In this document: piece by piece, positions 1-30,476 of the stretch
Position numbering within the stretch: position 1 is the first letter of the stretch
Layout: each line of letters opens with the position of its first letter
Assembly: GCA_020049775.1 (NCBI GenBank)
Contig: JAGVLO010000008.1
Coordinates: 83,790-147,789 of the forward strand
DNA length: 64,000 nucleotides
Direction of reading: 5' to 3'
Source: Alphaproteobacteria bacterium
GTDB taxonomy: Bacteria; Pseudomonadota; Alphaproteobacteria; Rickettsiales; SXRF01
Made by a program: the position numbers and the translations under genes
Notes under the pieces: generated by a model
Databases searched by the model: none
What the model was told of the DNA's origin: nothing
Seen by the model: only the letters and a program-made list of their open reading frames with translations

Positions 1-561
1 CTTGGCAATGCGCTGGTTGCACCCGTTATTGCTTATGTACCCGAGGGAAAGATTTCACCACCGGAAGGCAATATGCGTTTTTCCGGTACTATTTCCCTGC
101 GTGAAGAAGGATTCGCCATGCTTTTGGAAGACGCAGCGCGCAGCTTCAAACAGGCGGGTTTTAGAACAATATGTTTCATCGGTGATAATGGCGCAAACCA
201 GAAAATACAGTCAGACATAGCCCAGAAGCTTTCAGTTGAATGGCAAAAAGAGGGAATAACAGTGCTGCATGTCAGTGACTACTACGCCAATAACGGTTCT
301 GAACAATGGGTGGCATCAACATTGCCCATGACAAAAGAACCCGCAGCACACGGCGGCTTCATGGATACAGCTGAGACTATGGCCATAAATAGCAGCGCCA
401 TAAGATTGGGAAAGCTCAAGCCTTACGATGCAAAAGACTTTGAGGCCACGGGAGCGATGGGCAGCCCTGTTGATGCGAATGCCAATTATGGGAAACAGTT
501 GCTGTTATTTAAAATCAATGCAGCCGTCGCACAAATCCAGAAACACCTGCCAAAAAACTAG
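1..561 (+). CDS. creatininase (creatinine amidohydrolase) family protein, 5' end cut by window edge
   Basis: Frame 1 is open from base 1 (LGNALVAPVIAYVPEGKISPPEGNMRFSGTISL...) and continues into the listed 73..561 ORF. FIGDNGAN and AAHGGFMDTAET resemble the creatininase-family metal-site segments. Confidence 0.7.
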   Translation, partial: LGNALVAPVIAYVPEGKISPPEGNMRFSGTISLREEGFAMLLEDAARSFKQAGFRTICFIGDNGANQKIQSDIAQKLSVEWQKEGITVLHVSDYYANNGSEQWVASTLPMTKEPAAHGGFMDTAETMAINSSAIRLGKLKPYDAKDFEATGAMGSPVDANANYGKQLLLFKINAAVAQIQKHLPKN

Positions 562-1607
562 CTGCACCAGCGCAGCGTCTTTTCCGGCAGCCGGTTTTCA
601 AATGGCATGTTGTTTTGCTGCGCCTCAAGGAAATCTTTTTTCAGGCGGTAATACCAGAGCGCCTGCGCATCAGCATCACCAAGCAGCATCAGGCTCGGGT
701 GGTCACCGCTCAGTCCTTCCTGCTGTTTTTTGACAATTTCCAGATCCTGCCTGATAAAAGCCTTGCCGAATAATACCAGCAACGGCTTGAGGATGTTGAC
801 CAGCGGTATGGTCGAATACATGAACTGGTGCAACTCGGTTGTATCGGCATCAATCGGCGTCAGCGCCGTCAGCAGTACAATATGATGTTTACCAATGCTG
901 ATATGTTCCGTGCGCAGGCCCGGAAGCTGGAAAGAAATTTCCGTTGTTTTTTCACCGCCACCGAGAATTTTATAGGCGCGTGAATTCGATGAAGGCTTGT
1001 GATTTACCATCTTGAAGCCATACCCCACCGGAGCGAATTTCTTTTCCTTCAGATGCATCGAACGCTGGCTGCGCCACCACCATGACGCATGCACAAACGG
1101 CCCATGCGACGGATCCATCAGGCCAATAACAGCGTGGTCGATATTGCACGGGAACGTTACGGAATCGACCCAGCTGAATTTTGTCATTGTGATTGGGCTG
1201 GACGGTATTTCCGGCAATTGTTCAGGCACACGTGATTTTGGCGGCGGCACAAACACCCAGATATTGCCGTCCACCTCACGACAGGGGAATGATTGTGTTT
1301 TAATGCGTGAAATATCTGTCTTGTCTTCAGGCGTCAGCGAAGGAATCTTAGTGCATTTACCCTCGCTGTTAAAGCACCAGCCATGATAACAGCACTCAAT
1401 TTCCTTGCCATCAAATTTGCCATAGCGCAGGGGTACGCCCCGGTGCGGGCAAAAATCACGCAGCGCAAAAACTTTGCCTTCCTGGGTGCGCCCCAACAAC
1501 ACATCCTGTCCCAGTATTTTTTTTGCAAGCATCTTGCCAACGCGCAGTTGATGACCAGGCAGCGCTACATACCAGAGATTGTGAAGCAGTTCTTTATCGT
1601 TTTGCAT
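558..1607 (-). CDS. Rieske [2Fe-2S] non-heme iron oxygenase (PaO/Tic55-like)
   Basis: Rieske motif CPHRGVPL...CCYHGW near the N-terminus, followed by a catalytic domain of about 230 aa. The 349-aa length is typical. Confidence 0.8.
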   Translation of the reverse strand: MQNDKELLHNLWYVALPGHQLRVGKMLAKKILGQDVLLGRTQEGKVFALRDFCPHRGVPLRYGKFDGKEIECCYHGWCFNSEGKCTKIPSLTPEDKTDISRIKTQSFPCREVDGNIWVFVPPPKSRVPEQLPEIPSSPITMTKFSWVDSVTFPCNIDHAVIGLMDPSHGPFVHASWWWRSQRSMHLKEKKFAPVGYGFKMVNHKPSSNSRAYKILGGGEKTTEISFQLPGLRTEHISIGKHHIVLLTALTPIDADTTELHQFMYSTIPLVNILKPLLVLFGKAFIRQDLEIVKKQQEGLSGDHPSLMLLGDADAQALWYYRLKKDFLEAQQNNMPFENRLPEKTLRWCS

Positions 1608-1856
1608 GGGTTACCTAGTGTTTCCCAGCATCAGTAACCGCTTGCAAGGCTAACGTCAAATAATAGCTTATACATTCCTAAGCGTAATATTTTATATATT
1701 ATTGAGATATATTGATAAAATTACAATGCCTACCTAGAATCATGCATTATTTTTCCTTGGCCTTATTAACTCTAATTTTATGTATTGCTATCATATTCAT
1801 AACTATTAGTTTTCTAATTACGCTAAATATCCCTGCAACATAATTCTATAACGTAG

Positions 1857-3311
1857 ATGCGCTCTAAATCTCAGATTAAAGTACTGTGCTACATAGTTAC
1901 CTATAACGCCTCTCGCTTTATTGAAGAGGTCTTGAACCGCATTCCAGAAGAATGTTGGGCCAATGACCGTTATCAATTTGATGTACTCATTTCTGATGAC
2001 TGCTCACCTGACGATACCGTTGACGTATGTAAGCGTTATATTGATGGGTCAAAACACTCCATCAAAGTCTCGAGGACAAAGCATAATCTGGGATATGGCG
2101 GAAATCAGAAATTAGGCTACGACCATGCCATACACAATGGCTATGATGCCGTCGTGCTGCTTCATGGCGATGCACAATATGGCCCCGAATATTTACCGGC
2201 ATTGATTGATCCCATACTTGATGGAAAAGCTGATGTCATGTTGGGGTCGCGGATGATGCATAAGAAAGATGCACTCAAGGGCCGGATGCCATGGTATAAA
2301 TTTATTGGCAATATAACGCTTACCCAGTTCCAAAATTACATGCTCGGTAGTAAGCTGGCAGAATTCCATACGGGGTTACGGGCCTACTCGACAAAAAGTT
2401 TGTCTAACATAAACTATCGCTACAATAGCGATGGATACGTATTTGATACCGAAATACTTATACAGCATATAAATGCAGAACATCCCATCGGTGAAATTCC
2501 TATTGCGACCCGTTACGGCGATGAAGAATGCAACGTTAATGGCATCAAATATGCACTTCGGGTAGTCAGGAAAACCCTTGCATTCAGAATGCATAAGCTT
2601 GGTTTTTGCTACCTTCGGCAATATGACAAGGGGTATGGTGAATATCAATCAAAGACAGACTTCTATAGCAGCCATCGTTTTGCAATTGAACAGTCACAAA
2701 GCAGTGACCTATTACTGGATATAGGCGGCGGAAGCGGACATGTTGCCGGAGTATTGCATGAACAAGGCAAAAAAGTGCATGGTTTGGACAGTCGGGAAGC
2801 AGATGATCTAACCAGAAAAAATTATACTCATTATGTAAAAGTAGATCTGGATAGTTTTGCTGACTTTACTTCACTGAATATAAAACCCGATACTGTATTA
2901 TTGCTCGATATACTTGAACATCTCAAGCAGCCTGAGCGCCTTATTCACCATCTGCGTGATATATTGCGCCCCGAATCCAGACTAATAATTACTTTGCCAA
3001 ACGTAGCTTTTTTCAGTGTCCGTGTAAAATTACTCTTTGGTTTCTTCAACTATGGATCCAGAGGTACCATGGATCACACACACCTACGGTTCTTTACATT
3101 TTCGTCTATAGTAGCCATGCTTAAGAGTGAAGGGTATAAAATTACCCATGTGCGGGGTATTCCTGCGCCATTCCCGCTGGTAATCAAATGGAGGAGCTTA
3201 GCAACGCTCTGTATCAATATAAACAGCTTGCTGATAGCTATCCATAAAGGCTTGTTTGCCTATCAGATTGCAGTTATCGCACAGCCAAAGATTATTTCTC
3301 ACGACAGCTAA
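1857..3311 (+). CDS. bifunctional glycosyltransferase family 2 / class I SAM-dependent methyltransferase
   Basis: N-terminal GT2 signature (VTYNASRFIEEVL...ISDDCSPDDT...HGDAQY). The C-terminal half has a methyltransferase motif I (LLDIGGGSGHVAG) and LLLDILEHL. Confidence 0.8.
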   Translation: MRSKSQIKVLCYIVTYNASRFIEEVLNRIPEECWANDRYQFDVLISDDCSPDDTVDVCKRYIDGSKHSIKVSRTKHNLGYGGNQKLGYDHAIHNGYDAVVLLHGDAQYGPEYLPALIDPILDGKADVMLGSRMMHKKDALKGRMPWYKFIGNITLTQFQNYMLGSKLAEFHTGLRAYSTKSLSNINYRYNSDGYVFDTEILIQHINAEHPIGEIPIATRYGDEECNVNGIKYALRVVRKTLAFRMHKLGFCYLRQYDKGYGEYQSKTDFYSSHRFAIEQSQSSDLLLDIGGGSGHVAGVLHEQGKKVHGLDSREADDLTRKNYTHYVKVDLDSFADFTSLNIKPDTVLLLDILEHLKQPERLIHHLRDILRPESRLIITLPNVAFFSVRVKLLFGFFNYGSRGTMDHTHLRFFTFSSIVAMLKSEGYKITHVRGIPAPFPLVIKWRSLATLCININSLLIAIHKGLFAYQIAVIAQPKIISHDS

Positions 3312-4062
3312 AAAACCCGTCCACTATCCAGTGTGATAGCCAGCCCTGCACCCCGGCAGCTATGGGTTCAACCATGTCGGAATGGCTTTCCACCACCGCG
3401 TCAAGCGCATCACCAACACTCTTTCCACTGATAATTTCCTGCAACAGATAATAGGACGGCTCCTGCAACATGGTGCGCTGCACTTCATTGTTGTGGCGAT
3501 AGACATATACATAACTCGCCTGTTTCAATGGCGCATCTACTATTCCGTTCGTACGCTGCCTGTCCAACCATTCGCTTACCGGATAGGAAAACGCAATCAG
3601 TTGGGAAGCCGCTCGCGGCTTCAGCACTAGTCCAGCGAGGCCTTCTATGGTCAGCCCTTCCAGTGCAGCGGGCAAAAGTGGTGTACTTTCCTCCATCATG
3701 AATACACGCGAAATCGTCCGTTCAAGCTGTGCCACCTCGCGAGCAAAATCCGGCTGCTGACTTATTGCCACGAAATCCGCAAAACCATGCGGGTAAAAAT
3801 CGAGATTGTAATATACTGACGGCGTCTGCCGGACGTATTCCTGTGCCAGCCCATCAAACGCAGGCGCCCCCAGCAATGCCAGCAACGCCGGATAATCCGC
3901 ACGTATGGCACCTAGCAGACGCAATATGTAACCGTCGCTGTAAATGGCCAGCTGCTGTTCTGGTGTAAGCCTTGGGTGTTTTTTTACCGATGTAACAACT
4001 GGTGACGTATCGCCGGTAATGACAGTGTGGTGAAATTTCTCCAGCAGCTTTTGCATGGTCAC
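3292..4062 (-). CDS. bufC: DUF2063 protein, BufC-like partner of the MNIO enzyme
   Basis: Start overlaps the stop of the DUF692 gene (ATGA). N-terminal FHHTVITGD...QLAIYSDGY matches the DUF2063 pattern. It has the operon position expected of bufC. Confidence 0.75.
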   Translation of the reverse strand: MTMQKLLEKFHHTVITGDTSPVVTSVKKHPRLTPEQQLAIYSDGYILRLLGAIRADYPALLALLGAPAFDGLAQEYVRQTPSVYYNLDFYPHGFADFVAISQQPDFAREVAQLERTISRVFMMEESTPLLPAALEGLTIEGLAGLVLKPRAASQLIAFSYPVSEWLDRQRTNGIVDAPLKQASYVYVYRHNNEVQRTMLQEPSYYLLQEIISGKSVGDALDAVVESHSDMVEPIAAGVQGWLSHWIVDGFFSCREK

Positions 4063-4916
4063 GCCGCCTGCGTTGCTGATTGACGTGCAAGCTGACGTGC
4101 TTTTCCAATCTCCTGCTGCAGCACATCAAAAGCAGGGATGTGATCATCCCATTCCACCATGGTGGTTTTCATGCCTTTTGTGCGTACCAGATAGGCGTAC
4201 AAATCCCACACCTCAGGTATTACGTGGTGGTCATGCGTATCTATGATATATGTACCCAGATTGAGGTGTCCCGCCAGATGCACCTGCACAATGCGCTCAG
4301 CTGGCAGCGCATCAATATAACGTTTTGGGTCATATCCGTGATTGAATGAGCTGACATAGACATTGTTTACGTCCAGCAACAGAGCGCAATCAGCTTCTTC
4401 GGAAAGGCGAGCGAGAAAATCCCACTCCGACAGTGTTGATTCATTAAACTCGAGGTAGCTTGAGGGATTTTCCAACACTAGGGGGCGCTGCAAAATATCC
4501 TGCACCTGTTTTACCCTTGATACAATATGGGTAAGCATTTCTTCCGTATATGGCACAGGCAATAAATCATGGGTGTTTTTACCCTGTACGCCCGTCCAGC
4601 ATAAATGGTCAGAGACCCATGGAGGTTGCAGGAAATCTGCCAGTGCTTTCAGCTTCTTTAAATAATCTTTGTTCAAATCATCGCTGGATCCAATCGACAG
4701 CGACACACCGTGCATCACGATGGGATAATGCTTGCGCACGTCTCCCAGAAATTCCCAGTACCCCTTGTGCGCCTCCAGAAAATTTTCTGAAATCACCTCA
4801 AACCAATCAACAGTGGATGACTTGCCCTCGCGCATCATAGACAATACGCAGTCATAATGATCGGCTCTCAGCCCAAGCCCGAATCCCAGCTGTGGTAGTC
4901 TAAATCGGTTTGACAT
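4059..4916 (-). CDS. bufB: DUF692 / MNIO (multinuclear non-heme iron oxidative) family RiPP maturase, BufB-like
   Basis: PQLGFGLGLR...DWFEVISENF...HGVSLSIGS...VSDHLCW...LENPSSY...QVHLAGH are DUF692 (TIM-barrel) hallmarks. I prefer the ATG at 4916 (GGAGA 5 nt upstream) over the TTG at 4934 used by the ORF track. Confidence 0.85.
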   Translation of the reverse strand: MSNRFRLPQLGFGLGLRADHYDCVLSMMREGKSSTVDWFEVISENFLEAHKGYWEFLGDVRKHYPIVMHGVSLSIGSSDDLNKDYLKKLKALADFLQPPWVSDHLCWTGVQGKNTHDLLPVPYTEEMLTHIVSRVKQVQDILQRPLVLENPSSYLEFNESTLSEWDFLARLSEEADCALLLDVNNVYVSSFNHGYDPKRYIDALPAERIVQVHLAGHLNLGTYIIDTHDHHVIPEVWDLYAYLVRTKGMKTTMVEWDDHIPAFDVLQQEIGKARQLARQSATQAA

Positions 4917-4933
4917 AAGGTCTCCAAAAAGCA

Positions 4934-4959
4934 AGAGGCCCGCCTCACGGCGGGCCTCT
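4934..4959 (-). terminator. intercistronic stem-loop (attenuator or partial terminator) between bufA and bufB
   Basis: Perfect 11-bp stem AGAGGCCCGCC / GGCGGGCCTCT with a 4-nt loop. On the minus-strand transcript it is followed by UGCUUUUU, 15 nt after the bufA stop. Confidence 0.5.
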
Positions 4960-4974
4960 CCATCTCAAAAACTA

Positions 4975-5238
4975 TTAGCCTTTGGTCTTTGGCTCTAACT
5001 TGCCACCTTCTTTTTCGCAAGTACCCTTAGCTACATACTTCCATTCATCAGCATCGCCATCCTGCTTTGCCTGGCCAGCGCATGCATGCGAGCCATTGGC
5101 TGCTTTGCAGTCATTCTTACCAGCCTTGGCAATGCCATAGCACTTTTCTTTTTCAGCAGCAGCTGCATGATTATCGGCCTGAGCAATACCAGCCGCCAGA
5201 ACGCCCGCGAGAGCAACGGAAAGAAGCAGTTTATTCAT
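4975..5238 (-). CDS. bufA: DUF2282 / BufA1-type bufferin precursor peptide (secreted, 4 Cys)
   Basis: Sec signal peptide ([21 protein letters not shown]). The core has Cys at residues 33, 44, 53 and 74 in the pattern [12 protein letters not shown]...HACAG...KGTC typical of DUF2282. It lies directly upstream of the DUF692 and DUF2063 genes. Confidence 0.8.
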
Positions 5239-5470
5239 AAAATTATCTCCATAGAAGTTATATAGTTTTCAAGAGTTACGGGTGTTAACTACCCAACCCG
5301 CGACGATATTCGTATCACCAAACCAAAAAAGTTACATCTTTAAATTTTGTAATGTTTCAAAGCCTAACCTATATTAACGGGAAAAATAAATAGCGGTGGC
5401 GATTTATGCATTTATCGCCTATAAACATATTGTAATTGAATAGAAATTAACAACAAACAAGCGACTGGGC

Positions 5471-6442
5471 ATGAAAGTATTACTAACCGGTGGCGCCGGA
5501 TATGTTGGCAGCCATGTGCTAAGAAAATTATGTGATCAAAAAATATCGACACTGGTATTTGATGACCTTTCCAGCGGCCATAAGGAATTTATTGGCGACA
5601 ACCCTTTCATGCAAGGCGATATCAGCAAGATTGAGTCTGTAGACGGCGCATTTGCACAATTCAGGCCAGACATGGTGTTTCATATTGCAGCGCTGGCGAC
5701 TTTAAGTGAATGCAGCAAACGACCTGATGACTGCCACCGTGTCAATGTTACCGGCACACGCAATATCCTTGATGCCATGCGCAAACATGGAGTCAAGCAC
5801 ATGGTTTTCGCCAGCAGCTGTGCCGTGTATGCTAACGCCAGGACAATGACTGCACTGCGAGAAACCGATGAAATTGGGCCAATAAGTCCCTACGCAGAAT
5901 CCAAACGCGATTGCGAGGTGCTGCTGCGCGAATATGATAGTAAATACGGCATACGCTCTGTGGCATTCCGTATATTTAATGTATCAGGCGCACATCCCGA
6001 GGCCAACATTGGCGAACGCCATAATCCTGAAACGCATCTGCTTCCGCTTGTCATAGACACCATGCTCGGGCGCAGGCCGGCCATTTATATTTATGGTAAC
6101 GACTACCCCACCCCTGACGGCACCGCCGTGCGCGATTATGTACATGTGTGGGACATCGCCGAGGCATTCTTTCGTGCCGGCAAATTGCTGGGGGAAGGAA
6201 GCCCGTCACATATCCTGAACCTAGGTTCAGGCGTAGCAACCTCTGTCTATGACCTAATAAATGCTGTGAAAATTCAGGCAAAAATGGATGTTCCCTCTTC
6301 GCTGCAATCGCGTCGCGAAGGCGATTCCGCCTGGCTGTTTGCGGATGCTGCACTGCTTGAAAAAACATTACGATGGAAACCTGAGTGGTCAAATATGCAG
6401 GCCATTATCCAGACAGCTTTGAAATGGCACCAAAACCAGTAG
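5471..6442 (+). CDS. galE: UDP-glucose 4-epimerase
   Basis: N-terminal GGAGYVGSH Rossmann motif, a YxxxK catalytic motif (PYAESK), 323 aa, and a GalE-like C-terminus. Confidence 0.85.
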   Translation: MKVLLTGGAGYVGSHVLRKLCDQKISTLVFDDLSSGHKEFIGDNPFMQGDISKIESVDGAFAQFRPDMVFHIAALATLSECSKRPDDCHRVNVTGTRNILDAMRKHGVKHMVFASSCAVYANARTMTALRETDEIGPISPYAESKRDCEVLLREYDSKYGIRSVAFRIFNVSGAHPEANIGERHNPETHLLPLVIDTMLGRRPAIYIYGNDYPTPDGTAVRDYVHVWDIAEAFFRAGKLLGEGSPSHILNLGSGVATSVYDLINAVKIQAKMDVPSSLQSRREGDSAWLFADAALLEKTLRWKPEWSNMQAIIQTALKWHQNQ

Positions 6443-8250
6443 CTATTATTTCATCTATAGAGCTAAAGCATTGCCTGTTCCTGCTATGTACGCTGGTCCT
6501 AGCGATGCACTGGTTTGCATTACCTAAAATGGAACTGGTTGAGAAACAGATTAATGGCAAAGTTGTAGACACACTTACGCTGATGCCTGCTGATATTGGA
6601 GTAACCAATAATAACAGTGTCGCTGCATATGGCGAAGTAACTTATAAATACGCAATAGAACACCGTTCAGGCCAGCAAACAAATTTTCACTTCTATCCCA
6701 AAGGCTGCCTGTCACGTGTCACGCTCAATGGCTACCCAATACCATACCCTATGGTTTCTCACTGTAGCTTTGAGATGGGGCTGACTATTGACCTGGAAGA
6801 CTACCTTCAGGAAGGAAAGAATACACTTATTGTTGTCAAAGATGGCTGGAAGCTGGTGTTGGGACCCTTGATATTTGGGGAGGATTTTGGCTTATCTAGC
6901 ATATTGGGCGGCCTTCTTATTGCCGTAGCTTTTCTGACTATTATACGTTTTGTAGAAAAGCTTACACATGATCATATTGCAGCGTGCATCATTGCATGTG
7001 GATTTCTTCTGTATCTTTACATACTGAATAATACCACGTTTATGTGGAAAAAATATGATATGCCGCAGCATCTCGATTATGCGGCGTTTATAGCTAATCA
7101 CCTTAGATGGCCAAGCACTACACAGGGATTCCTGACCTATCACCCCCCTCTGTACTATACGCTTCAGGCGATAGTAATCTTATTAGCAAATTTTTTAGGT
7201 AGTTTTGAGGTGGTTTCTGTAATGCGTATGTTTAATGTCGCGTGCTTTATGGCGTTTCTGATTTTCGCAAGTGCAACATTAAGAAAATATATCAAAAATA
7301 ATATAGCGTATTATACAGCACTCATATTTCTTGTGTTTTACCCGGGCAGTGGCGTCATTTCTGTCCGCATGGACAGCAATTTGCTATTCTACCCTTTGTA
7401 TATGGGGTGTATTTATTTTACTGTCTGCTGGCTAGAGAATAGGCAATACCGACAATTAGGCTATGCGCTTGCCATGTGTGGCCTTGCAATGGCTACACGA
7501 TCTAACGCACTTCTATTACTACCCATTATAGGTATAGCCGCTTTATATCAATGGAAGAGGGTAAATTTTTGGTACCTGTTTTCCTGCCTGAGGTCACGTG
7601 CAGTACTGATAGGAATACTTGTGCTTCTGATTGGCACCGCTGCAAATTTTGGCCGTCCAGCCTATGAGCATATGGGTAGCAAGCGCAATCATGATTATAT
7701 CGTTGCCAATGCCGGTTATCTTGCTTCCATTGCACGAGGGTTGCGCATAACCAATACATTGGATCATTACGTCAGCTTTGATTTTAATGAGTACATTGCA
7801 CCGCCTTATTTCAATGTCTGGTGGGATAAAGGTGGGCGCCATTACTTCTGGATAACTGCAATCAAATCTTCTATGTACGGCGAATTTTCTTTCCCTAATG
7901 GATGGATTGCCGTGTATCTAAACATAATTATATTGGCTATTATTGCCTATATTGCTACAACAATAGCTATGGGATACCGGCATCTGCCCAGAGAGGCAGA
8001 ATGGCTGATATTCCTGATTACGCTCATAATACCCTTGGCCGGATTAGCCGCTAACCGCATTCTCCACCCTATCGCCTGCTCGCAGGACTTTCGTTATGTC
8101 TATCCGGCGATTGCTTCATTCTGCGGGCTAATTGGCTTTGCCATCCAGCAAAACCTAGCCCAAAACAGAATGCTCATGGCTGCCACCGGCATCGTGGCAG
8201 CAGGAATATTCGCCCTGTTCTCGTTATTGTTTTTCCTGAAGATGTTCTAG
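6424..8250 (+). CDS. polytopic membrane protein, GT-C-like (ArnT/PMT_2-type) putative glycosyltransferase with an N-terminal extracytoplasmic domain
   Basis: More than 10 predicted TM helices after a soluble domain of about 120 aa. The architecture resembles ArnT/PMT_2 proteins. Start is ambiguous (GTG 6385, ATG 6424, ATG 6505). No sequence search was run. Confidence 0.5.
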   Translation: MAPKPVAIISSIELKHCLFLLCTLVLAMHWFALPKMELVEKQINGKVVDTLTLMPADIGVTNNNSVAAYGEVTYKYAIEHRSGQQTNFHFYPKGCLSRVTLNGYPIPYPMVSHCSFEMGLTIDLEDYLQEGKNTLIVVKDGWKLVLGPLIFGEDFGLSSILGGLLIAVAFLTIIRFVEKLTHDHIAACIIACGFLLYLYILNNTTFMWKKYDMPQHLDYAAFIANHLRWPSTTQGFLTYHPPLYYTLQAIVILLANFLGSFEVVSVMRMFNVACFMAFLIFASATLRKYIKNNIAYYTALIFLVFYPGSGVISVRMDSNLLFYPLYMGCIYFTVCWLENRQYRQLGYALAMCGLAMATRSNALLLLPIIGIAALYQWKRVNFWYLFSCLRSRAVLIGILVLLIGTAANFGRPAYEHMGSKRNHDYIVANAGYLASIARGLRITNTLDHYVSFDFNEYIAPPYFNVWWDKGGRHYFWITAIKSSMYGEFSFPNGWIAVYLNIIILAIIAYIATTIAMGYRHLPREAEWLIFLITLIIPLAGLAANRILHPIACSQDFRYVYPAIASFCGLIGFAIQQNLAQNRMLMAATGIVAAGIFALFSLLFFLKMF

Positions 8251-21541: not shown

Positions 21542-21967
21542 GTGCCTATGTCTGCATGGCCCTTACTGATTGACCCCGTTTCGCGACTGCTCGATAAGAT
21601 CATCCCCGATCCGGATGCGCGTGTCCGCGCGCAAGCAGAGTTGCTAAAATCCGAGCGCGAAAGCGATCTTGAATCGCTGCGGCTTGCACTTAGCGCCGAC
21701 CAGCTACAAACCGCCATCAACACGCAGGAAGCCGGACATGCTAACCTGTTTGTCAGCGGTTGGCGGCCTTTTATCGGCTGGGTGTGCGGCGTGGCCTTTG
21801 CCTATCATTTTATATTGCAGCCCCTGCTTGCATTTATTATCGACAATAGCGGCGGTAATGCCAAACTACCCACATTCGAGATGCAGGAGCTATCTACGGT
21901 ATTGATGGGTATGCTGGGGTTGGGCGGATTAAGAACGATTGAAAAACTTCGCACATCTGCTAAATAA
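21542..21967 (+). CDS. 3TM-type holin (GTA_holin_3TM / DUF3154 family)
   Basis: N-terminal IPDPDARVRAQAELLK... coiled segment, then QTAINTQEA......SGWRPFIGWVCG and further TM helices. This matches the family described for gene-transfer-agent release holins. From memory of the family, not searched. Confidence 0.6.
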   Translation: MPMSAWPLLIDPVSRLLDKIIPDPDARVRAQAELLKSERESDLESLRLALSADQLQTAINTQEAGHANLFVSGWRPFIGWVCGVAFAYHFILQPLLAFIIDNSGGNAKLPTFEMQELSTVLMGMLGLGGLRTIEKLRTSAK

Positions 21968-22604: not shown

Positions 22605-22659
22605 CCTACACAAATATATAGTTGCCTAATAATATTCACATTGTATTTTGCTGCACAAG

Positions 22660-23076
22660 ATGAAGTGTCGCTATAAATACGTTACCTGCGTTGTATTGCT
22701 TGCGTTCCTGCTGAACCTAGCGCTGCCTTTTCTCGCTGTTTATAATGTCAAGGCAGAACATTCCTACGCCAAACAGATGTCGGAAATGTTTGGCGAGAAG
22801 GTGCTTATCTGCACAGCCACCGGCTTCAAATGGGTTACATGGCAGGACCTGCAGAACGGCAAAGAAGATCAGACACCGCACCCTGACTATAAATGCGCGC
22901 TTTGTTATCTGGCGGCGCATGGCCTCAAATATGTTACCGCGCCAAATACCATTGCGGTTGGTTATGGTTTTCTGCAAGGCAATACAGGTGTGCTGCCCTA
23001 CTCCTATCACCCGCCTGCCTTCCACCGGCAATCATCCCTTCATACACGCGCTCCACCCCATTCCATTATTGGCTAA
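22660..23076 (+). CDS. DUF2946 family protein
   Basis: N-terminal TM/signal segment, an internal LICTATG and a paired-Cys motif (KCALCYLAAHG) are typical of DUF2946. ATG at 22660 preferred over TTG at 22648. Confidence 0.55.
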   Translation: MKCRYKYVTCVVLLAFLLNLALPFLAVYNVKAEHSYAKQMSEMFGEKVLICTATGFKWVTWQDLQNGKEDQTPHPDYKCALCYLAAHGLKYVTAPNTIAVGYGFLQGNTGVLPYSYHPPAFHRQSSLHTRAPPHSIIG

Positions 23077-23150
23077 TTCTTAAATTCCAATGTTCCTGCC
23101 ATGCATTTGCGCGCGGCGGGCTGTTGTCATGTCAATAATGGAGTCTGATA

Positions 23151-24119
23151 ATGTATGTTTTTACTACAGGCGGATACCGCCTGCCTGCAGCTATTATGGC
23201 TGTTTTCTTTATATTTTCTTCACCAGCTCATGCCAGTTGCGGAGCAGCCTACTGCCCGGTAAACACCCAGTGGAATACCCAGGGCATTTGGACTGAGCCG
23301 GGCTGGCGCGCTGACCTGCGCTACGAATTTGTTCCACAAACGCAACCACGTACACAGGACAGTCGTATTGCTGTCGGCCAAATCCGGCGGCACCACGATG
23401 AAGTCCGTACTATCAATCAAAATCTATTGGCCACTTTGGACTATGGATTTTCTAACCGCTGGGGCGTAAGTGTTGCTTTGCCATTTTCTAAACGTGAGCA
23501 TACGCATATTCATAACCATGGGGGAAGCCAGTTTATTGAGCAATGGGATTTCACAGAAATGGGAGACACACAGCTCATGGGACGCTACCAGCTTCAAGAC
23601 TGGAACAAACCTTATGTGTTTGGGTTGTATTTCGGTACAAAGCTGCCTACAGGTAAGTTCACGATTGAAAATCGCGCGGGAGATCGTGCAGAGCGTACAT
23701 TGCAGCCAGGCACAGGAACGATTGACGGATTAGTCGGTTTTTACCTTCGGCAGAATTTTCCTGAATCGCAATCATCATGGTTTATGCAAGCTATTTTACA
23801 ACAGCCTTTTAATGAACGCGATGAATATAAACCCGGAGAAAGCATATCGCTCGATATCGGATACAGGTATGATATAAGCCAGCGCCTAAGCCTCATGCTA
23901 CAACTCAACAATCAATATAAAGACCATGACAGCGGTCAGGATGCAGAAGCCCGTGACAGCGGTGGCCATAGTATTTCTTTAAGTCCTGGTATCAGTTATG
24001 GCCTTACTGAGACTGTACAGTTATACAGCTTTGTCCAGAAACCGGTATATCAATATGTAAATGGTGTACAGATAACGCCGGAATGGTCGGTAATTACCGG
24101 TATAAGTTTGCATTTCTAA
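23151..24119 (+). CDS. outer-membrane beta-barrel protein (MetA-pathway/transporter-like OMP family)
   Basis: Signal peptide ending AHA. Alternating beta-strand pattern with a C-terminal aromatic residue (ISLHF). A Cys pair (SCGAAYC) sits at the mature N-terminus. Confidence 0.6.
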   Translation: MYVFTTGGYRLPAAIMAVFFIFSSPAHASCGAAYCPVNTQWNTQGIWTEPGWRADLRYEFVPQTQPRTQDSRIAVGQIRRHHDEVRTINQNLLATLDYGFSNRWGVSVALPFSKREHTHIHNHGGSQFIEQWDFTEMGDTQLMGRYQLQDWNKPYVFGLYFGTKLPTGKFTIENRAGDRAERTLQPGTGTIDGLVGFYLRQNFPESQSSWFMQAILQQPFNERDEYKPGESISLDIGYRYDISQRLSLMLQLNNQYKDHDSGQDAEARDSGGHSISLSPGISYGLTETVQLYSFVQKPVYQYVNGVQITPEWSVITGISLHF

Positions 24120-29948: not shown

Positions 29949-30476
29949 ATGTTGAACGCTAAAAACTCACTTGTTGGACTGTTCGCCCTGCTGGCTTCCG
30001 CCGCGGCAGCATTGCCCGCCCATGCCGGTGATTATATGTCCATTAACATCGGCAAGTTCGATGCCTTTGATGACACACATGACGCCACCCAGTTTGGCGC
30101 GGAATACCGTGGTGAATATCTCGGTTATAATATCCGCCCCATCGCTGGCGGTTTTTTCACCAGCGAAGGCAGTGTTTATGGTTATGCCGGCCTTAACTGG
30201 GATGTAGAAATACTCCCGCAGCAGCTCTACATTATCCCCAACTTTGCGATCGGCGCCTATAGTGAAGGTGATGACGGCAAAGACCTTGGCGGCACTCTTG
30301 AATTCCGTTCGGGCATCGAACTGGCCTACCAGTTCCCCAATGCCCACCAGCTTGGCGTGGCACTGAACCACATTTCAAACGCCAGCATATATGATCGCAA
30401 CCCCGGTGAGGAAACCCTGATGATTACGTATTCAGTACCGCTGAATACCGTCAGCAACCTTATCGGCGGTCACTGA
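29949..30476 (+). CDS. acyloxyacyl hydrolase (PagL-like lipid A deacylase)
   Basis: Signal peptide on a small beta-barrel of 175 aa. HISNAS and a C-terminal segment match the PagL His/Ser active-site pattern. Confidence 0.65.
   Translation: MLNAKNSLVGLFALLASAAAALPAHAGDYMSINIGKFDAFDDTHDATQFGAEYRGEYLGYNIRPIAGGFFTSEGSVYGYAGLNWDVEILPQQLYIIPNFAIGAYSEGDDGKDLGGTLEFRSGIELAYQFPNAHQLGVALNHISNASIYDRNPGEETLMITYSVPLNTVSNLIGGH

Follow-up and report, generated by a model that had tools for sequence, protein, structure and literature searches.

The bufABC locus

A 64-kb stretch of DNA from an uncultured alphaproteobacterium (assembly GCA_020049775.1, contig JAGVLO010000008.1, positions 83,790 to 147,789), referred to here in its whole length as the window, carries bufA, bufB and bufC, which encode a DUF2282 precursor peptide, a multinuclear non-heme iron oxidative (MNIO, DUF692) maturase and a DUF2063 partner protein, respectively. 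An earlier note, made from the letters of this DNA alone, had described three co-oriented minus-strand genes and assigned them to a bufferin 1 (Buf1) operon, bufferins being ribosomally made peptides that are modified after translation (RiPPs); the three genes are present at the positions it gave (Table 1). The bufABC genes are intact, co-oriented and tightly coupled, and each passes its family test. A hairpin followed by a U-run lies between bufA and bufB, and a candidate promoter of the type recognized by the extracytoplasmic function (ECF) sigma factor SigF precedes bufA; the earlier note lists neither.

Table 1. Features of the bufABC locus and its 3' flank, in window positions
Feature	Position	Strand	Basis or detail
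Candidate ECF SigF-type promoter, GTAACT-N17-CGAA	5309..5335	-	ends 70 nt upstream of bufA ATG
Signal-peptide codons of bufA, residues 1-21	5176..5238	-	sequence inspection
bufA core (66 aa; Cys I-IV = residues 33, 44, 53, 74) and stop codon	4975..5175	-	PF10048
Intercistronic hairpin and U-run, bufA/bufB	4926..4960	-	12-bp stem, 9 G-C pairs, GUGA loop
GGAG ribosome-binding site of bufB	4922..4925	-	5 nt ahead of ATG
bufB, MNIO (DUF692) maturase	4059..4916	-	PF05114, NF050167
bufC, DUF2063 partner with RRE-like C-terminal domain	3292..4062	-	PF09836, AlphaFold2/Foldseek
Low-GC indel segment with GT2/methyltransferase gene (1857..3311), not part of the operon	1669..3304	+	
RRE, RiPP recognition element; GC, guanine plus cytosine content; GT2, glycosyltransferase family 2.

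The bufA gene occupies 4975..5238 on the minus strand and encodes 87 residues, with cysteines at positions 33, 44, 53 and 74 and a 66-residue core following an AQA↓D site, as had been described. For bufB, the ATG at 4916 is the best start and agrees with the N-termini of homologues; a longer open reading frame (ORF) from a TTG codon, reaching 4934, would start within the hairpin. The bufB and bufC genes had been said to overlap in an ATGA junction. An overlap is possible, but the junction reads GTGA, with the GTG at 4062; alternatively, bufC may begin at an ATG at 4056, in which case the two genes are separated by 2 nt, and the public gene call for an identical BufC protein (P0243) uses this ATG, giving 254 residues. 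Comparison with two orthologous loci, at a dS of 0.8-1.6, gave ratios of nonsynonymous to synonymous substitution rates (dN/dS) of 0.06-0.07 (bufA), 0.05 (bufB) and 0.12-0.14 (bufC); strong purifying selection maintains all three genes.

BufA, BufB and BufC belong to the bufferin 1 family

BufA matched the DUF2282/BufA1 profile (PF10048) with 83.3 bits against a cut-off of 22.4 (E 1.1e-23). Its N-terminus, which begins MNK, displays by inspection a basic n-region, a hydrophobic h-region and the AQA↓D cleavage motif, giving a putative Sec signal peptide of 21 residues, and this pattern is kept across 68 homologues. C33, C44, C53 and C74 are invariant in the alignment of these 68 homologues and likewise in close relatives. 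An AlphaFold2 model of BufA, in which the strands at residues 30-34 and 66-70 were confident and the loop bearing Cys44 and Cys53 was less so, reached a moderate mean predicted local distance difference test (pLDDT) score of 69, and Cys-Cys geometry was not taken from it. Sequence searches with BufA and BufC against the PDB yielded no match for either.

BufB matched PF05114 (DUF692) with 356 bits and passed the NCBIfam equivalog NF050167 (MNIO_BufB) with 352.8 bits against a cut-off of 310, while falling below the cut-offs of the HvfB, ApyH, MbnB and ChrH models. Its iron ligands (H69, H104, E149, D182, N185, H213, D226, H228 and E255) align with those listed for MbnB (H54, H90, E133, D163, N166, H192, D208, H210 and E239; PMC9060507), and none of the nine varies among 16 homologues.

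BufC matched DUF2063 (PF09836) with 59.3 bits against a cut-off of 27.2, and scored 22.1 bits on NGO1945_C, under the cut-off of 27. The AlphaFold2 model of BufC (pLDDT 87.9) retrieved the MNIO partners TglI (8hi7_A, E 2.8e-6) and NGO1945 (3DEE, E 1.5e-4, TM 0.71) in a Foldseek search, as well as the RRE of TbiB1 and lasso-peptide RRE domains; the match to MbnC was weak (E 0.38).

The Buf1 assignment thus passed every sequence-level membership test that could be run: a DUF2282 precursor with four cysteines and a signal peptide, a BufB-type MNIO with its ligand set, and a DUF2063/RRE partner are all present. DoxX (BufD) was looked for and not found; it is frequent in bufferin clusters but is not membership-defining, because it is absent in many Buf1 loci and is experimentally dispensable.

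Comparison with characterized systems

The founding bufferin 1 system, buf1ABCD of Caulobacter vibrioides (CCNA_03363-03366; PMC11626156), shares with the window a DUF2282 precursor with a Sec signal peptide and four cysteines, of which Cys II stands at core position 23 in both; the gene order, MNIO then DUF2063 partner, is the same, and a SigF-type box is found upstream of bufA in each. Unlike the Caulobacter locus, the window has neither bufD (DoxX) nor an adjacent sigF-nrsF pair. Caulobacter buf2ABC and other Buf2 (Buf_6/12Cys) clusters resemble the window in consisting of three genes without DoxX; in contrast to Buf2 precursors, the window precursor has four cysteines and the DUF2282 motif rather than six-Cys CKGxN repeats, and competing profiles place it in Buf1.

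The precursor class is not simply mirrored in the enzyme. Outside its own clade, the window BufB is nearest (51-59% identity) to MNIOs of Acidobacteriota, Planctomycetota, Legionella and Methylotenera (loci L011-L086), which are encoded beside Buf2-type precursors or beside none detectable; the precursor type therefore does not simply track the enzyme tree. Both classes of precursor were also observed at single loci: a gene for a Buf2-like Cys-Lys peptide is directly followed by a Buf1 (DUF2282) gene at L010:1534-2099, and at L039:7135-7913 a Buf2-type gene precedes bufB, with a Buf1-type gene on the opposite strand.

The gig operons of Cupriavidus metallidurans and Legionella pneumophila, now counted as bufferin clusters (PMC12452194), comprise the same DUF2282, DUF692 and DUF2063 families (PMC5413113, PMC10304878); they include a DoxX-family gene and are metal-induced, whereas the window locus lacks DoxX. 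The hvf-type clusters for oxazolin, fontiphorin and gonophorin ('captophorins'; bioRxiv 10.1101/2025.11.18.689057) likewise combine an MNIO and a DUF2063 partner with a Sec-exported cysteine-containing precursor, and their products bind copper (bioRxiv 10.1101/2025.11.18.689057), a property only predicted for the window. They are distinguished from it by the HvfB equivalog (254 bits for the window enzyme against a cut-off of 360), by HvfC (39 against 142) and by the lack of EGKCG in BufA. The locus is equally distinct from methanobactin MbnABC: BufB scored 65.8 bits on MbnB TIGR04159 against a cut-off of 325, and its partner is a DUF2063 protein that matches MbnC only weakly in structure.

DoxX is absent from the window and from many relatives

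A six-frame hidden Markov model (HMM) search of the whole window detected no DoxX (best E 0.16), using a profile that gave the same call as Pfam for all 12 positives; the earlier note was correct that a DoxX-like fourth gene is lacking. The note had further presented this lack as a departure from the described operons, a view that is contradicted by relatives. Among 26 complete Buf1 bufABC loci obtained from metagenomes in a Buf1-specific scan, each with at least 700 nt of downstream sequence, DoxX was missing within 3 kb in 13, followed bufC in 7 and lay elsewhere nearby in 6. Eight of 11 Buf1-type loci from the window's own clade had no DoxX nearby; it was upstream and divergent in two and followed bufC in one. 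Across the 87 loci whose BufB is nearest to the window's enzyme, 12 neighbouring ORFs matched Pfam DoxX (about 14%), a count that covers mostly Buf2-type precursors and is not Buf1-specific, and the loci were recounted split by precursor type. In four related lineages the operon sits at this chromosomal position too, in each case without DoxX. Deletion of bufD (doxX) in Caulobacter left copper protection and modification unaffected, and the Caulobacter buf2 operon is devoid of doxX (PMC11626156). DoxX absence, being common in two surveys and dispensable in the literature, was consequently rejected as a distinguishing feature; DoxX appears not to be required for bufferin production. A bufABC operon without DoxX is a common architecture, and the locus is ordinary in this respect.

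A hairpin separates bufA from bufB

No other terminator-like site in the first 20 kb of the window is as strong as the intercistronic hairpin. Its minimum free energy is -36.4 kcal/mol (z = -5.0), and none of 200 shuffled sequences was equally stable. The stem lies 17 nt ahead of the bufB ATG and the U-run ends 9 nt ahead of it. When compared with the nearest relative (L001) and with two further close relatives (L167 and L168), the stem has undergone one compensatory change, G:C to A:T, and is kept. The hairpin sequence occurs once in the window, and a repeated extragenic element was rejected on this ground.

A similar arrangement extends beyond the lineage. In 66 bufferin loci from many phyla, the folding of the 70 nt following bufA was ranked against windows of the same locus: it came within the top 5% at 42% of the loci and within the top 10% at 65%, and the control site behind bufC reached the top 5% at only 2%. 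The hairpin is probably, judging by its sequence and position, a partial terminator or a stabilizer of the mRNA or its 3' end, raising the abundance of precursor mRNA over that of enzyme mRNA. The two bufferin papers searched make no mention of a terminator, hairpin or promoter. A precedent for such a precursor/enzyme arrangement is the intercistronic terminator between mccA and mccB of microcin C, in which a short precursor gene has a hairpin immediately behind it and the maturation enzymes are supplied by read-through (PMC6495379); microcin C is an unrelated RiPP class, and the bufferin element is a prediction.

A candidate SigF-type promoter precedes bufA

In Caulobacter, SigF binds GTAACC-N16-CGAA and drives both buf operons (PMC3511200). 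The pattern GTAAC-N16-18-CGAA has a single match in the window, the box upstream of bufA. Among 66 genome loci, 10 have this box 56-107 nt upstream of bufA, where chance would give 0.47; it also precedes bufA in 6 of 74 metagenome Buf1 loci, and it was present in 10 of the 13 loci in which nrsF adjoins bufA. Comparison of four close lineages shows unchanged -35 and -10 blocks separated by a variable spacer. No sigma-70-like site was detected on the buf strand in 5239..5470. The box is consistent with continued control of the operon by a SigF-type ECF sigma factor whose gene would lie outside the 64 kb.

The 5' untranslated region (UTR) of bufA (70 nt, 5239-5308) is itself highly conserved in the four lineages. 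It contains a second GTAAC and a small hairpin, CGGGT...ACCCG, which is kept through a T-A to T-G change; an Rfam search with the conserved UTR returned no family and one chance sub-threshold snoRNA match. Relatives with sigF-nrsF beside bufA have msrA/msrB and doxX as further neighbours (L004:7612-8190, L006:2757-4329 and L008:4700-6269), hinting at a common regulon for envelope oxidative or metal stress.

The operon's surroundings are lineage-specific

The window and L001 align collinearly (80-83% DNA identity) except at the low-GC segment adjoining bufC, in place of which L001 holds 62 bp. The segment has a GC content of 0.42, and the flanking spacer 0.305. The 20-bp convergent overlap that had been reported between the 3' end of bufC and the GT2/methyltransferase gene (1857..3311, plus strand) is real, and both the gene and an identical 20-bp overlap are found in L167 and L168; the gene is missing from L001 and from a 337-kb contig. 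Given this distribution among close relatives, the GT2/methyltransferase gene counts as a presence/absence polymorphism outside the operon, and the overlap was rejected as meaningful for the bufferin operon.

The earlier note had also placed the operon inside a glycan-modification neighbourhood. Such a neighbourhood is present, but it represents lineage-specific synteny and no general association: four lineages share the order his genes, PMT_2, a galE-like gene, bufABC and a Rieske gene, and homologues of the galE-like, PMT_2 and GT2/methyltransferase genes adjoin buf genes only within the same genus-level lineage, with the exception of a weak epimerase match in L006. A general association between glycan genes and bufferins was rejected for this reason. 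The neighbourhood of L002 contains an unrelated ArnT-type cluster. This locus and L003, both from the 'Rickettsiales' metagenome-assembled genome GCA_035765535.1, carry bufB-bufC without bufA (L002:5904-7622 and L003:3178-4896), with only 97 bp available upstream, divergent from a cluster of ArnT-like PMT, DegT, GT2 and epimerase genes; either their precursor must be encoded elsewhere or the bufB-bufC pair must be orphaned.

A DUF2946/outer-membrane protein pair, noted earlier as lying 18 kb from the operon, does exist 17.4 kb from bufA (window 22648-24119), but the DUF2946-like ORF scored 21.4 bits against the Pfam cut-off of 23.7 and nothing ties the pair to the operon; its neighbour is an outer-membrane beta-barrel of the Phenol_MetA_deg type (28.2 bits). 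Other genes in the window encode a three-transmembrane holin of gene-transfer agents (21542-21967; PF11351, 74 bits) and a PagL lipid A 3-O-deacylase (29949-30476; 63 bits). The holin indicates an alphaproteobacterial host, in line with the labels Rickettsiales or Alphaproteobacteria on the nearest metagenome-assembled genomes. Window positions 1-8000 have a GC content of 0.44-0.47, below the value of about 0.52 in the remainder, and the lowest values there belong to the GT2/methyltransferase gene (0.42), PMT_2 (0.43) and intergenic spacers (0.31-0.33).

Discussion

We consider it highly probable that the locus is a Buf1-type bufferin biosynthetic operon, bufABC, with the mechanism and regulation proposed as follows. 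Transcription would start from the SigF-type ECF promoter upstream of bufA, under a SigF/NrsF pair encoded outside the 64 kb, and the hairpin and U-run after bufA would stop or stabilize most transcripts, such that precursor mRNA exceeds the bufBC read-through mRNA. In the cytoplasm, BufC, with its DUF2063 and RRE-like domains, would bind the BufA precursor and present it to BufB, a multi-iron oxidase, which would convert the two central cysteines, Cys44 and Cys53, into 5-thiooxazoles. The peptide would then be exported by Sec and its 21-residue signal peptide removed; upon formation of a Cys33-Cys74 disulfide, the 66-residue product would bind excess periplasmic copper, a 1:1 complex being expected of a Buf1 peptide. 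The computed monoisotopic mass of the BufA core is 6849.24 Da unmodified and 6839.16 Da in the predicted mature form. The model for this scheme is Caulobacter Buf1, the only biochemically characterized Buf1, in which Cys II and Cys III become thiooxazoles and Cys I and Cys IV form a disulfide, and which selects copper from a mixture of metals, its dissociation constant for Cu(I) being ~7e-20 M (PMC11626156).

Several points weigh against this reading. The thiooxazole chemistry and copper binding are predicted for this locus from homology, and metal specificity could differ, gold, mercury and oxidative stress having been linked to related operons. A six-frame HMM search of the window found no ECF sigma factor, NrsF or MsrA, such that the sigF and nrsF genes expected of a SigF-driven operon are absent from it. 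The box departs from the Caulobacter consensus in the sixth base of the -35 element, which is T and not C, and in its spacer of 17 rather than 16. Since 0.89 box matches are expected by chance per 64 kb, close to the single one seen, the argument for the box is built on where it lies and on its repeated occurrence in relatives. Its conservation in the four lineages is likewise only weakly informative, since the entire bufA-galE intergenic region is 65-85% conserved among close lineages. Finally, a T-run accompanies the hairpin in only 24 of the 66 loci, and for this reason transcription termination and mRNA stabilization are left as alternatives.

With regard to the hairpin, one alternative is that it acts as a complete terminator, bufBC being transcribed from a promoter of their own, or else as a generic stability element without stoichiometric effect. 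In favour of this alternative are the geometry of the hairpin, which is that of a canonical intrinsic terminator, and the many relatives in which the hairpin lacks a T-run; however, the 9 nt between the U-run and the bufB ATG hold the ribosome-binding site and leave no room for a promoter, and modification of BufA demands expression of both bufB and bufC. We regard this alternative as unlikely. It is also a tentative proposal, one to be taken seriously but on which we would not rely, that the post-bufA hairpin is a family-wide, previously undescribed regulatory element of Buf1 and Buf2 operons by which precursor mRNA is kept well above enzyme mRNA, and that the lineage studied here additionally has an orphan SigF-type promoter, left after the loss of an adjacent sigF-nrsF and doxX.

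The same enzymology could serve a role other than copper buffering, such as the handling of gold, mercury or silver, or a response to oxidative, chlorine or envelope stress. The first descriptions of related operons, in Cupriavidus and Legionella, were of gold-induced genes (gig; PMC5413113, PMC10304878); the SigF regulon of Caulobacter responds to chromium and cadmium (PMC3511200), MerC-bufferin fusions are known (PMC12452194), and the relatives L004, L006 and L008 sit beside msrA/msrB and doxX. The copper selectivity of the characterized Buf1 (PMC11626156) argues against a different metal or stress function, as does the window itself, in which no mer, gol or msr genes were found, and we hold such a function to be distinctly improbable. 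Least credible of all is a silent or decaying remnant that has lost sigF-nrsF and DoxX and has been invaded at its 3' end by the GT2/methyltransferase gene. The ECF sigma factor, NrsF and DoxX are indeed all missing from the 64 kb, and a low-GC segment of 1.6 kb lies against the 3' end of bufC and overlaps it, but the ORFs are intact, the catalytic ligands and cysteines are conserved, dN/dS is 0.05-0.14 at a dS of 0.8-1.6, and the operon, promoter box and hairpin have been kept in four diverged lineages, with or without the GT2/methyltransferase gene.

The bufferin operon described here adds one more uncultured alphaproteobacterial example to a family that is already well catalogued: DUF2282 genes are carried by 4,072 complete genomes (PMC12452194), one survey charted 21,424 precursors (bioRxiv 10.1101/2025.11.18.689057), and identical copies of BufA, BufB and BufC are already in NCBI and JGI, on a 252,507-bp contig and with correct Pfam labels. 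Its practical value is modest and lies in a compact bufABC needing no DoxX, in a lineage with four diverged orthologous loci, and in a clean case for two regulatory predictions absent from the two bufferin papers searched, namely an intercistronic attenuator and an ECF promoter remote from its sigma gene. These regulatory observations apply to the bufferin family rather than to the window locus in particular, and are modest additions. If true, the promoter reading would mean that an orphan promoter can keep a bufferin operon within a SigF-type ECF regulon once the adjacent sigF-nrsF and doxX genes have been lost.

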